This document shows positions 1,311 through 19,148 of a stretch of DNA of 31,581 nucleotides, piece after piece. Under the pieces are notes generated by a model. It saw only the letters and a list, made by a program, of their open reading frames with translations, searched no databases and had not been told where the DNA came from. The DNA is from a virus (lineage: Duplodnaviria > Caudoviricetes). The stretch covers positions 1 to 31,581 of the IMG/VR virus record IMGVR_UViG_3300049009_000104; one strand, 5' to 3'. The translations under genes and the position numbers were made by a program. Every line of letters begins with the position of its first letter. Positions within the stretch are counted from its first letter, which is position 1.

Positions 1311-2153
1311 TTATTCTGTACAAGTGATGTCAACACAACCACCAGCATCGATAGCGACAGCGCCAGCACTAAACATTGAGCTAACTAACCAAGAGGTTTT
1401 CTCTGGGATGTAGTTGATCTCACTGCGAATTGCCATGCTTTCAGCCATACCGACAGCCATTTTGTGGTAAGCATACACCTTGCGGGTAGAACCTGAACCA
1501 CCGCCAGTTAAACCGCCTTCAGAGCGATCACCGATAGTGATGAAGTTAAATCCCATGAATGATGTAATGTCACCTTGCACTAATGCTTTAACGCTGTTGA
1601 AGTCAGAACTTGTGACAGCAGTCTCAGACAAAAGGCTAGACAATTGTGAAGCATGAATCAGCATATAGCGATCTTCTGCTGGTACGTTTGCAGTGTTCAT
1701 CAAACGAGCAGCTTCACGCAACTTAGCCATGTTCATGTTTGTACCAGCGCCACCAATGCTAGTAGCAACTGTCAAGCTGGTGCTTGATGCTGCCAATGCG
1801 TCAATGATCATCTGATCAGAACGGCGACCAATAGCTTTAGCAACAACTTGCACCAATTCTTGGCGCTCGTCAAAGTTAACTTTAGCTTGGTTAAAGATAT
1901 CGCTGTATTCAGCAGCAATGTAGTCAGTCAGTGTGACTGTGGCCTGAGAGTAGGTCACATTCAAAGGAGTTACATCAGTCTGAGGAACTCGGACTTGTGC
2001 AACACCAGCACCAATTTTGGGGAACTTGTGAGTGGACGCAGTGACACCAGTACGCAGACGGACAGTGTTACGCAGGACAGCATCAGCTTGATATGCCTGT
2101 TTAACTTCCGTGTCGAACAAGGTCACAAATGCATTAGAAATGCTAATTGACAT
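1311..2153 (-). CDS. Major capsid protein (HK97 fold, BPP-1-like podovirus type)
   Basis: 280 aa; MSISISNAFVTLFDTEVKQAYQ...FPKIG, DFNSVKALVQGDITSFMGFNF motifs; SD AGGAG; follows scaffold. Confidence 0.9.
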   Translation of the reverse strand: MSISISNAFVTLFDTEVKQAYQADAVLRNTVRLRTGVTASTHKFPKIGAGVAQVRVPQTDVTPLNVTYSQATVTLTDYIAAEYSDIFNQAKVNFDERQELVQVVAKAIGRRSDQMIIDALAASSTSLTVATSIGGAGTNMNMAKLREAARLMNTANVPAEDRYMLIHASQLSSLLSETAVTSSDFNSVKALVQGDITSFMGFNFITIGDRSEGGLTGGGSGSTRKVYAYHKMAVGMAESMAIRSEINYIPEKTSWLVSSMFSAGAVAIDAGGCVDITCTE

Positions 2154-2291: not shown

Positions 2292-2322
2292 ATTATAGAA
2301 CACACTTTCTAAGGGTTGTCAA
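2292..2322 (-). promoter_or_regulatory. Sigma70-type capsid promoter, TTGACA-N19-TATAAT
   Basis: Perfect -35 (2317-2322) and -10 (2292-2297) with a 19-bp spacer. Confidence 0.65.
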
Positions 2323-2330
2323 CTAATTTT

Positions 2331-2613
2331 AAGCATAGTTTCCCCAAGGGTGGTAGCCAATGCTATCCAGCCCTACCCAGAGGGTCATGCTTTAAGGGGT
2401 AGTTAATCGAATAACTCCCCCCTAAAACCAACCATCCCAGTAAACCCTTGAGGCAGCGATTCATCCAACACTGACTTGTCCCACCCATGTATCAGTGTTT
2501 ACCCTAGTCCCTCGCTGACAGGCTAGTAGGGTTATCTTGGGGGTGTATCCAAGCCCTGTGTTCTCTTCCAAGCAGTCCATGCAGACCCACTGGTATCGTC
2601 TGGAGTACGGAAG
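2331..2613 (-). ncRNA. Candidate highly structured non-coding RNA (~285 nt)
   Basis: No credible ORF; at least six hairpins and two potential loop-loop/pseudoknot pairings. Confidence 0.5.
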
Positions 2614-2626
2614 TCAATGCACAAGT

Positions 2627-2729
2627 AAAAAAGCCGCTTACTACTGCATATTGGTTGCACCCTTTGAGAATCCCCAAAGGCAATACGCATGAGTAAACGG
2701 CTTTTAAACCTGTTGTGTGCAACGACAAC
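2627..2729 (-). ncRNA. Candidate antisense/attenuator RNA reminiscent of P4 CI / P1 C4-type phage riboregulators
   Basis: 5' hairpin whose loop contains GUUGCAC, then a long stem with 7-nt bulge GUGCAAC ending in a U6 tract; G-U pairs favour the minus strand. Confidence 0.6.
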
Positions 2730-2735
2730 GCAATC

Positions 2736-2764
2736 AGTATAGACGAAAAAAAGCCCCCACGCAA
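2736..2764 (-). promoter_or_regulatory. Sigma70-type promoter TTGCGT-N17-TATACT embedded in the scaffold terminator
   Basis: -35 at 2759-2764, -10 at 2736-2741; predicted +1 near 2729 coincides with the first base of the 5' hairpin. Confidence 0.6.
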
Positions 2765-2814: not shown

Positions 2815-3582
2815 TTAACCATACATCTTTTCAAAGAGCTTTTCAACCTTTACCCTGAAAGCTGGTTCCTTTTTATATCTTGGATCAGCAACCATGGCAT
2901 CCAGTTCTTCTTTGGATACAGATCCTTCAGGGTTAGATTTAAGGGTATCTACTGGTACTCTGCCCTCATATGTCTCTCTCAGCTTAGACAGCGCTTTAAT
3001 GCCCCTAGCAGTGTCTCCCCAGCGTGTAAATTCCTTAAATTCATCTTCACCCCAAATACCCTTGTTGACCATCCCACGACCCCATGTAGCCATGTTGGAA
3101 ATGATTGCCTTGGCATTAGGGCCAAGTTCTTCCATTTCTTGCTCCATGGATCTTCTGGTTAAAGTTTCTTGATCACCAGATACAGTGGTTACTTCTTTTG
3201 CTAGATCCTCAAATGCTTGCTGGGAGATGCCGTACTTCTGCGCCCAACTTGTGTATGCCTGTGCCACTGGATCATTATCCTGTAGACCAGCAGCTTCTAA
3301 GTTGTATTTGCCGTCTTCTGGTGGCTTGTGTGAACCAGAGCGGAACTTCTTCTCTAGCTCTACATAGGACTTGCTAATACCTTCTAGATCAGGTTCAGCC
3401 TTATCTTTGTTCCAAAACTTCTCAGGCCAAAAGTCTGGACGCTCAAGTGGAGAATCTTCCTCAAAAGTAGGATCGCCTTGAATGTGATTGATTGCTTGCT
3501 CTTGGCCCTCGGTTGTCTGCTGTGCTGGCGCTTCTTCGGCAGCGGCTTGTAGCAGGCCAGGGTTGTCATTTGCTTCGCTCAT
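2815..3582 (-). CDS. Capsid scaffolding (head assembly) protein
   Basis: 255 aa, acidic; RPDFWPEKFW...SYVELEKK motif and C-terminal DPRYKKEPAFR; between portal and capsid. Confidence 0.8.
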   Translation of the reverse strand: MSEANDNPGLLQAAAEEAPAQQTTEGQEQAINHIQGDPTFEEDSPLERPDFWPEKFWNKDKAEPDLEGISKSYVELEKKFRSGSHKPPEDGKYNLEAAGLQDNDPVAQAYTSWAQKYGISQQAFEDLAKEVTTVSGDQETLTRRSMEQEMEELGPNAKAIISNMATWGRGMVNKGIWGEDEFKEFTRWGDTARGIKALSKLRETYEGRVPVDTLKSNPEGSVSKEELDAMVADPRYKKEPAFRVKVEKLFEKMYG

Positions 3583-12557: not shown

Positions 12558-12606
12558 ATGCTATCACGATAAAGACATTGCACACAACTATTATTTGTGG
12601 CATAGT
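12558..12606. promoter_or_regulatory. Overlapping divergent promoters (minus: ssb-terS operon; plus: ncRNA candidate)
   Basis: Minus TGa-TAGCAT (12558-12563); plus TTGCAC-N17-CATAGT with extended -10 (12578-12606). Confidence 0.5.
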
Positions 12607-12611
12607 TCAGT

Positions 12612-12797
12612 TGGGGCCATCACTCAGCCCTCCAAAAGGCAGGCAGCTTACCAATTGGGATAAACGTACCGCATCCATCAGGACTTCCAGTAGCACGAGC
12701 GAACAGGGCCATACAGGTGGAGCCAACAACTAACAATCGTTGGTCAGGTTAGATAAACAAGGTGCTGCATCTCTAACGAGATCTAATCACTTTTTTT
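12612..12797 (+). ncRNA. Candidate structured ncRNA (~185 nt)
   Basis: Plus-strand promoter upstream, several hairpins including two GAT-AAAC...GC-ATC stem-loops, ends in a T7 run. Confidence 0.35.
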
Positions 12798-12830
12798 AGT
12801 GAGTGCCATAGTTCGTCCACCATCTAGGTT

Positions 12831-13089: not shown

Positions 13090-13734
13090 TTAAGTTAACA
13101 TTCTAGCCAGCACCTGCTCGATGTCAGCCACTGTCGCTGCAGGCCCTGCCTGCTGCTGCGCTGCCGCGAATATCTCAGCACCTACTGCTTTGCTTAGTTG
13201 CTCAATTGTCATTTCATCTATAGTCTGTTGACTATCTGCCTGCTTCAGATTACTAACCCGCTGGTCAGTTACTTTATCTGCTTTGCGTTTTCCCATGGTT
13301 TCCCCCTTTGCCCCTGTAGGCTGTTGATTTTCTTGCATATATGGCGCTGTTTCACCTGTAATCCCTATGATGTCAGCAAGGCTTAGATCTGCCTTGTATA
13401 TGACCTGCCTTGTATGCGCTCGTTCACCCTTAAAACCGTAATAAATGACCTTTACATATCCTGCTTTGATCAAAGCCCTGGTATGCACTGCTGCCCTGTT
13501 TAGGCTGATTTTGAAATGATCTGCTATCCTTTGCAGGCCCACCCAGGTCAACCCTGCCCTGTTGCTGTAAGCACAGAGCATAAGCAGTACCCTTAGCTGC
13601 ATTTCAGTTATTGATCTGTCAGTGATAGCCCTAAACGGAACCACAGCGAAATGACGCAGATCTGGCTGCTTTTCTTTTTGCTTGATCCGTGGCTTTTTGG
13701 GCAGGTTTATAGGTACTGGCTGCATGGCCTGCAT
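13090..13734 (-). CDS. Winged-HTH protein, putative replication initiator
   Basis: FAVVPFRAITDRSITEMQLRVLLMLCAYSNRAGLTWVGLQRIADHF...ALIKAGYV, typical of phage HTH initiator N-termini. Confidence 0.6.
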   Translation of the reverse strand: MQAMQPVPINLPKKPRIKQKEKQPDLRHFAVVPFRAITDRSITEMQLRVLLMLCAYSNRAGLTWVGLQRIADHFKISLNRAAVHTRALIKAGYVKVIYYGFKGERAHTRQVIYKADLSLADIIGITGETAPYMQENQQPTGAKGETMGKRKADKVTDQRVSNLKQADSQQTIDEMTIEQLSKAVGAEIFAAAQQQAGPAATVADIEQVLARMLT

Positions 13735-18842: not shown

Positions 18843-19148
18843 ATGGAATTCGGCACAATTTGGAAAAAACTTGTACGCCGCAACGACCCCCACACCAGTC
18901 AAGAAGCCGCCAAGTCTGTCAACACGACAAACATGGAGCAGATTGTCTATGAGGTAATTGCAGGTTATCCACAGGGTTGCATACAGGATGAGGTACTAGC
19001 TCACTTAATGAGCTATCCCTACTCTACAGTGACCGCTCGGTTCAGATCCTTGCTTGACAAGGGTTACATCGTTGACACTGGGCTTACCCGCCCTGGTCGA
19101 TCAGGAAGAAAACAGCGGGTTTTGCAAATCAATGAAAAACATGATTGA
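18843..19148 (+). CDS. Winged-HTH DNA-binding protein
   Basis: RRNDPHTSQEAA...YSTVTARFRSLLDKGYIVDTG...SGRKQRV; SD AAGGAG. Confidence 0.7.
   Translation: MEFGTIWKKLVRRNDPHTSQEAAKSVNTTNMEQIVYEVIAGYPQGCIQDEVLAHLMSYPYSTVTARFRSLLDKGYIVDTGLTRPGRSGRKQRVLQINEKHD

Follow-up and report, generated by a model that had tools for sequence, protein, structure and literature searches.

A large pseudoknotted RNA family of phages and its probable role as pre-primer of an RNA-primed replication origin

The minus strand of the window, that is the whole stretch of 31,581 nucleotides analysed here (IMG/VR record IMGVR_UViG_3300049009_000104), carries between the capsid scaffold gene and the major capsid gene a conserved structure that is real and absent from Rfam, and that represents a new large RNA family, called family 'A' below and present in numerous freshwater phages. 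The explanation that we regard as the best one, with a probability of about 60%, is that this element serves as pre-primer for an RNA-primed (R-loop) origin under the control of attenuation, and it is likely that phages exchange such an origin as a module. Its fold, the layout of its leader, the absence of a downstream terminator and its gene context were observed directly. Support for the origin comes from the truncation of initiators in the presence of the RNA, from the swap of the RNA with an HTH gene, from the structured DNA linked to the leader and from the missing terminator.

Layout of the cassette and structure of the RNA

The window genome (31.6 kb, 94% complete) has podovirus-like head and tail genes and presumably a betaproteobacterial host; the nearest cultured relative of its capsid gene product is found in the Methylophilales phage MEP301 (64% identity). 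The gap between the scaffold and capsid genes, both on the minus strand, measures 661 nt (2154-2814), against 184 nt at the corresponding place in MEP301. An earlier note on this DNA had pointed to the gap and to a series of motifs within it; the gap is real and all the motifs lie where they had been placed. The region contains a cassette composed of a promoter, a terminator-type leader and the RNA, with no terminator behind (Table 1). Both the cassette promoter and the capsid promoter fell outside a strict promoter scan and were called by reading the sequence. Conserved hairpins also occur in the 5' leader of the capsid gene (2160-2285; fold z -1.5), in filled as well as empty relatives. GC skew of the window genome gave no origin signal, and a single DnaA-box-like sequence was seen at 18965-18973, within a small ORF near a divergent promoter region.

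Table 1. Features of the scaffold-capsid gap, its flanks and a distant initiator-like gene (window coordinates)
Feature	Position	Strand	Basis
Capsid scaffold (head assembly) gene, upstream flank	2815..3582	-	PHROG 1052, weak; gene order as in MEP301
Major capsid gene, downstream flank	1311..2153	-	PHROG 3437; 64% identity to MEP301
Intrinsic terminator ending the scaffold transcript, with the -35 box of the cassette promoter in its loop	2752..2773	-	Terminator scan; also in the empty-slot relatives shown
Cassette promoter, predicted sigma-70: TTGCGT, 17 nt, TATACT (-10 box 2741-2736)	2736..2764	-	Read from sequence
Leader/attenuator: small 5' hairpin, long terminator-type hairpin, U run (2632-2627)	2627..2729	-	Fold z -7.05
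Structured RNA of family 'A'; relatives measure about 240-285 nt	2329..2610	-	Alignment, covariation
5' domain: P1 (2604-2601 with 2570-2567), P2 (2587-2584 with 2577-2574)	2567..2604	-	Covariation (P2), best-helix search (P1)
P3 stem, loop CACC (2545-2542)	2528..2557	-	Covariation (outer stem)
Core: P4 (2526-2504), pseudoknot 1 (2517-2512 with 2459-2454), P5 (2499-2467), loop GGUGG (2485-2481)	2454..2526	-	Covariation
Small hairpin P6 (2453-2445); long, variable hairpin P7 (2443-2373), which includes the optional G6 hairpin (2421-2396)	2373..2453	-	P6 covariation; P7 folding
3' end: CCACC (partner in pseudoknot 2), G run, CUAUG-like motif, A-rich stretch; predicted primer end	2329..2353	-	Covariation, sequence
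Separate capsid promoter: TTGACA, 19 nt, TATAAT	2292..2322	-	Read from sequence; kept in filled and empty relatives
Short HTH_36 initiator-like gene, without iteron-like repeats	13090..13734	-	Profile search

Covariation was assessed on an alignment of 54 representatives sharing less than 92% identity (alignment A1). A model of 36 base pairs was paired in 94.3% of its cells against 76.7% in shuffles, none of 500 shuffles reaching as high, and showed two-sided changes at 25 pairs; shifting the pair partners along the model lowered pairing to 31-47%. Homologues with compensatory changes, which the earlier note had set beforehand as the test of its proposal, were found, and covariation confirmed its description of an undescribed, pseudoknotted, non-coding structure. 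The gap folds better than shuffles on the minus strand (z -2.3; plus strand, z -0.9), and the helix cells comprised 156 G-U against 21 A-C combinations, mostly at a few conserved pairs, an excess that favours the minus strand.

Pseudoknot 1, predicted beforehand between CAGCGA (2512-2517) and UCGCUG (2454-2459), was 100% paired in all 54 representatives, which show eleven loop variants and two-sided changes at five of its six pairs. Its two strands were complementary in 166 of 168 distinct cores among the matches listed, nine loci being unparsable, and the two exceptions were one short insertion and one single mismatch; just one of 34 non-family pattern matches, again among the matches listed, had this complementarity. 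Three stems that had been foreseen, now named P3 (2528-2557), P4 (2504-2526) and P5 (2467-2499), covary among the 54 representatives, the outer stem of P3 being 96.8% paired with covariation at four of four pairs. P2 reached 99.5% pairing with covariation at three of its four pairs. The arms of P1 swap between subtypes, and at least four Watson-Crick pairs were present in 37 of 54 members in a best-helix search run without a null. P6 forms part of the covariation model, and P7 folds in each of 11 sampled members. Two other stems suggested earlier fared less well: the one spanning 2331-2392 was 37% paired in the alignment, and the one at 2582-2602 was 60% paired, no better than shuffles. The long closing stem of the single-sequence fold failed the alignment test. 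As for the hairpin at 2396-2420 with its G6 run, the sequence is there, but it is an optional insertion found in five of 54 members, with any G5 run in that domain in nine of 54. The core and the 3' domain are G-rich in 54 of 54.

Pseudoknot 2 involves the loop of P5. The GGGUG of this loop had been matched to the CACCC loop of P3, and the partner that is better supported by covariation had been missed: the loop (GGUGG or GGUGA) pairs with CCACC or UCACC near the 3' end (2353-2349 in the window), with G-C in 41, A-U in 12 and G-U in one of the 54 representatives. The pairing with the P3 loop consists of four near-invariant pairs and a fifth that is broken in 29 of 54, and gave no signal over shuffles; what speaks for it is one sequence, L562, in which the loops of P3 and P5 have changed together with the 3' site. 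This three-site change in a single sequence suggests a GGUG loop with two alternating partners, and the P3-loop and 3'-site pairings may be used in turn.

Distribution of the family, its leader and its transcription

Both flanking genes were available for 68 of 80 capsid relatives, and the slot between them held 'A' in 25, another element, 'B', in 12 and other contents in two; it was an empty short gap in the remaining 29, which counts against an essential origin in this group. Turnover of the contents along the capsid tree is frequent, with 13 changes counted for 'A', 11 for 'B' and six for the empty state. Two near-complete empty-slot genomes and the cultured MEP301 had no copy of 'A', 'B', 'D' or 'E' (see below) elsewhere. 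Pattern scans in which the kissing loop was kept free gave at least 109 family members among the 120 matches listed in the viral collection, many of them in unrelated contexts, at least 85 among the 119 listed for metagenomes and none among the 120 listed for bacterial genomes, the matches listed reaching about half of each collection. An exact pattern of 15 nt was discarded as a family probe, its matches being mostly chance ones within coding DNA. At five loci (L039, L040, L146, L225 and L203) an additional 100-200 nt lie between the attenuator and the RNA, and the capsid gap of L068 contains an HNH gene followed solely by the 3' tip of the family RNA.

Database comparisons were consistent with a new family. 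BLASTN against 50,697 annotated phages gave no real match (one query produced a chance hit and one a blank); in 72,556 plasmids, four queries (two of 'A' and one each of 'B' and 'E') had no genuine match. Rfam covariance models, used at the gathering threshold and at the E-value level, matched neither the window nor its homologues, in line with the check that had been proposed beforehand; the families without a match include ribozymes, introns, HEARO, ARRPOF, GEBRO and PAGEV. Literature searches gave no account of family 'A', with the reservation that the supplements of two screens (PMC5737381; files 1, 2 and 4 of PMC10690425) may list pieces of it. The second of these is an IMG/VR screen for structures of 29-151 nt, and six other files of its supplement had no match to the family.

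An attenuator had been proposed at 2627-2729, and the leader hairpin with its U run at 2627-2713 is indeed real (z -7). The cassette transcript is predicted from sequence to start near 2729. Within the leader, seven nucleotides of the small 5' hairpin (2723-2717) are complementary to a bulge of equal length (2660-2654) in the long terminator-type hairpin. Of 135 distinct upstream regions among the matches listed, 113 closed with a hairpin and U run directly ahead of the RNA, and in 100 of these 113 a 5' segment was complementary over at least 7 nt to the inside of the hairpin, in more than 60 sequence variants, against 12% in a mismatched-pair control. Matches to a sense promoter cluster 120-180 nt before the RNA (128 loci among the matches listed), and some relatives have TTGACA at the place of the cassette -35 box. 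A scan for antisense promoters of the sigma-70 type revealed no conserved position, with at most nine of the 128 loci per bin; no terminator was present within 150 nt downstream of the RNA in any of 169 distinct regions among the matches listed; and a search of five genomes for a trans-acting RNA complementary to the leader returned matches of chance length alone. The view that the RNA is made only by read-through of the leader fits this layout. Natural variants exist in L027 and L025, whose leaders lack the 3' arm of the terminator and the U run, so that read-through would be constitutive there.

Lack of transcription had been named in advance as an argument against a functional RNA. Four of eight RNA runs, from four studies, yielded contigs from the element, at 2318-2611 (with one difference), 2376-2537, 2436-2622 and 2328-2570, which is a weak hint of expression since the data are unstranded, the runs had been selected because they contain the stretch, and carry-over of DNA is possible. 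In the other four runs (X10, X12, X13 and X17) the element was without a contig, and the leader was uncovered in all eight. Contigs on the capsid side start at 2257-2277 in seven runs, again a weak hint. All RNA contigs were colinear, with no joint inside the element, contigs being apt to drop rare forms.

Initiator genes and other occupants of the slot

Gene context was read at 79 distinct pattern-found loci among the matches listed that had at least 1.2 kb downstream; these loci are related, so that the counts below are not numbers of independent events. A replication operon follows 'A' at 41 of them and a capsid gene at 25. The 41 operons begin with an initiator C-terminal domain (24), a ParB-like gene with or without an SF2 helicase (14) or a primase-helicase (three); the remaining loci showed an HNH gene (three, one shared with an initiator locus), a small terminase (two), a portal (one) or no gene assignment (eight). 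Head or packaging genes adjoin at least 28 of the 79 loci.

The initiator genes behind 'A' all lack the N-terminal DNA-binding half (24 of 24, with at most 36 open codons upstream), and they belong to two unrelated families, PHROG 270, retained from profile position 178, and PHROG 678, retained from position 219. When the C-terminal part of the O-like PHROG 678 type was used as query (21 loci, 18 evaluated), the RNA was found upstream of 15 of 15 truncated genes and of none of three full-length ones; the latter have 263-293 open codons, and the two that were checked encode initiators of 373 aa. A query with the PHROG 270-type domain retrieved 62 loci, with 'A' at 36, a non-coding family 'D' at 13 and, behind a leader of the same kind, the element 'E' at three. 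Twelve genomes that are 92-100% complete carry an RNA in the slot ('A' in ten): the PHROG 270 match was confined to positions 168-277 in ten of them and was absent from two. Neither a relative of the HTH initiator domain nor a Toprim primase turned up in these 12 genomes, an empty result obtained without a positive control in the same search. The RNA takes the position at which related phages have the origin-binding part of the initiator, which makes it likely to be an RNA primer that starts phage DNA replication.

The slot between scaffold and capsid genes itself offers a swap of this kind. Locus L048 (1853-2353), which groups with two carriers on the capsid tree, holds there a stand-alone HTH_36 initiator domain with iteron-like direct repeats. 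A search with only the leader as query gave 49 distinct loci, and ORF-poor structured DNA followed the window-type leader in 49 of 49: 'A' in 32, 'B' in two, 'E' in two and other ORF-poor structured stretches in 13. Three of these 13 end in two or three sequences resembling the DnaA box. Element 'E' corresponds to the Rfam family Betaproteobacteria-1 RNA.

At least five further unnamed non-coding families, none of them matching Rfam, were noticed behind the same leaders (L023 and L055, element 'B'; L489, element 'D'; L682, L708 and L729; L674, L714 and L723; L679, L704 and L720; L673, L690, L695 and L493). One has the 5' motif of 'A', one ends in DnaA-box-like clusters, and several are followed by HNH genes. 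Betaproteobacteria-1 was seen in the same slot at L465 (2350-2470), L501 (2083-2204), L685, L699 and L716, and conserved non-coding sequence at these loci appears to extend past the Rfam model. Short inverted-repeat elements, similar in appearance to c4-type antisense RNAs, are present in the capsid gap of L015 and before the SSB gene in L443 and L444, the one in L015 being without an Rfam hit.

The earlier note had stressed the lack of a primase. A Toprim primase was indeed not found in the window genome, but the note had passed over the HTH_36 initiator-like gene. A gene of this type was present in seven of seven genomes of the group that are at least 90% complete, whatever the content of the slot. 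Long HTH genes with triple repeats occurred in two empty-slot genomes and two genomes with 'A'; short ones without repeats, including that of the window, were found in five examined genomes, all with 'A' or 'B'; MEP301, which has no cassette, possesses a short HTH gene. Since the gene is present in seven of seven and two genomes combine iteron-like repeats with the RNA, 'A' does not replace the initiator in this group.

A second non-coding element was noticed near 12560-12830, between the HTH and SSB genes, and is 77-83% identical in G003, G004 and G006. It was found with short repeat-free HTH genes, was absent from the four genomes with long HTH genes and is replaced by other elements in G005 and G015, one of them beside an HNH gene; MEP301 has a stretch that is similar by eye. 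This element is possibly another origin module and may be the origin of the window genome. As it accompanies short HTH genes and MEP301 has such a gene without a cassette, the window may have another origin than the RNA.

A predicted RNA-primed origin, known systems and rival explanations

If the element is a pre-primer, host RNA polymerase would start near 2729 and most transcripts would end at the leader terminator, the variable 7-nt kissing pair setting the rate of read-through. The read-through RNA would fold during synthesis with its GGUG loop resting first on the CACC loop of P3; once the 3' CCACC had been copied, the GGUGG loop would switch to CCACC, either in the RNA or in the DNA strand that is displaced. 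The CACC loop released in this way, whose sequence equals that of the 3' site, would pair with the template strand and keep the bubble open. A lasting RNA-DNA hybrid would form across the G run and the A-rich end. The primer would be produced and elongated by RNase H and DNA polymerase I of the host, and loading of a helicase would be assisted by the stand-alone C-terminal domain of an initiator that many carriers encode downstream. The steps that we infer are transcription of a discrete RNA, the loop switch, the hybrid and priming. In the phage group of the window the module would be an optional or second origin. A wider proposal, which we put forward tentatively and at a little under even odds, is that interchangeable RNA origin modules of 250 nt ('A', at least five unnamed sisters and Betaproteobacteria-1) have repeatedly taken the place of the HTH-and-iteron half of lambda-O-like initiators in freshwater phages, and that 'A' opens DNA by a two-state loop switch capturing both strands, dosed by a kissing-loop attenuator and not by antisense RNA.

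By analogy, 'A' most likely works like ColE1 RNA II without being a member of the ColE1 family. It shares with RNA II of ColE1/pMB1 a promoter-driven structured RNA, no terminator at the primer end, a proposed persistent hybrid, independence from Rep, and short motifs at the two ends that are alike and identically ordered. Neither an unfiltered nhmmer search nor covariance model R1 detected homology in ColE1 (NC_001371). Weight matrices of the 5' and 3' ends of the family, however, each rank a site of the ColE1 replication region first of 13,292, in the right order and 300 nt apart, the 3' site being presumably the ColE1 origin. This motif-pair score was reached by two of 300 shuffles and by none of 68 bacterial loci, and the pair is kept in two diverged ColE1-like plasmids; the test was built after the resemblance had been noticed, its 5' motif derives from 30 of 54 members and a 12-nt version ranks third. 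Unlike RNA II, 'A' measures about 400 nt from predicted start to end, has an attenuator in front and two covarying pseudoknots, and is phage-borne; an antisense RNA I promoter of the sigma-70 type over the 5' end was not found for it, and the window has no Rfam match. The conserved rG stretch that pairs with template dC in ColE1 has no conserved counterpart in 'A', for which the CACC/GGUG arrangement is proposed instead. ColE1 depends on the pairing of part of its RNA with a corresponding part of the template, timed to a certain point of elongation (PMC4412123), and the three-site change in L562 fits strand capture as in this template pairing.

Other systems offer partial parallels. According to the same source, T4 uses promoter-driven R-loops as origins: its oriF and oriG resemble the proposed module in being phage origins made of a promoter and a lasting downstream RNA-DNA hybrid, with several origins per genome, but, as described there, they rest on a DNA unwinding element, without mention of a large folded RNA (PMC4412123). 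The MRB replicons of Vibrionaceae have ORF-free, iteron-free origins of about 500 bp in which a terminator-like hairpin limits replication, its disruption raising copy number (PMC3035462), and they are described as unrelated in sequence to ColE1 (PMC6380287), so that RNA-primed origins without ColE1 sequence kinship exist. They differ in being plasmids of Vibrionaceae under antisense RNA I control, and the comparison with 'A' is one of published descriptions (PMC3035462, PMC6380287). At five loci Betaproteobacteria-1 (RF02932) is the occupant of the slot, preceded by the same leaders; it has another sequence, a model of 120 positions and no match to 'A', and it matches the alternative slot occupant alone. 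ARRPOF, GEBRO and PAGEV are structured motifs, 223-349 nt long, that are associated with replication regions of plasmids, their mechanism being unknown as presented in the source; they come from other hosts and as Rfam families do not match 'A' (PMC5737381).

The origin has to be weighed against several other explanations. RNAs of the put type cause processive antitermination, with terminator read-through by RNA polymerase, and a cis-acting RNA whose nascent structure modified the polymerase in this manner, or otherwise controlled the following operon, would suit an element that usually lies near a promoter and attenuator heading an operon, has no terminator behind and precedes early as well as head genes. 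We consider this unlikely: in the window a separate capsid promoter follows, with RNA contigs starting behind it, the downstream genes are very diverse, and neither the loss of the DNA-binding half of initiators nor the swap with an HTH-plus-repeat gene would be explained. Slightly more doubtful is a selfish element that HNH homing endonucleases would spread and that might be a ribozyme, its GGUG loop binding two CACC sites successively, like splicing ribozymes with exon ends. HNH genes behind the RNA in three of 79 loci (among the matches listed) and behind sister elements, the frequent slot changes (13 for 'A') and the two CACC partners point that way, but most copies have no HNH gene, the RNA always lay between genes and never inside one in the loci read, no ribozyme or intron of Rfam matches it, and the RNA contigs are colinear, without an internal joint.

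The context that argues for an RNA primer would serve equally for a fold acting in the single-stranded DNA displaced by transcription, as a recognition signal for primase or primosome, and covariation is blind to the difference between RNA and single-stranded DNA, a caution raised for plasmid motifs (PMC5737381). The balance of 156 G-U to 21 A-C cells, the promoter and attenuator upstream and the RNA-library contigs in four of eight runs, one of them across 2318-2611, render such a signal a little less probable again. The phage phi29 pRNA is the model for a packaging or structural RNA, one of the functions suggested earlier, in which loop-loop pairs would join molecules; capsid, portal or terminase genes adjoin 28 of 79 loci among the matches listed, and kissing pairs exist. 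A packaging role is nonetheless very improbable, since 29 of 68 close relatives share the head genes but lack 'A', two near-complete genomes lack it as well, and 'A' is commoner at replication operons, swaps with an initiator gene and has no 3' terminator. Window ORFs of 52 and 86 codons overlap the element, and a conserved peptide had been named as a possible alternative; the alignment refutes it to the point of a negligible probability, with no frame open in more than six of 54 members and core lengths in all three phases. A terminal ATG considered as start codon is present in 32 members and missing in 22, hence not conserved as such. A replication primer stands, by gene context, as the favoured one of the three functions guessed at from the sequence, although the G6 run invoked for it is not conserved.

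Even without an origin role, the element stands for a large RNA family that is new, has two pseudoknots backed by covariation and makes a good target for structure and ribozyme assays. Should it be a primer, the orphan Rfam family Betaproteobacteria-1 would gain a testable function, and compact, swappable origins with built-in specificity codes would become available for vectors in poorly tractable freshwater bacteria. Many small aquatic phages have no recognisable polymerase or primase; MEP301 is described as encoding no DNA or RNA polymerase (PMC8024684). A widespread RNA module in place of the origin-binding domain would explain the start of replication for a large group of phages.
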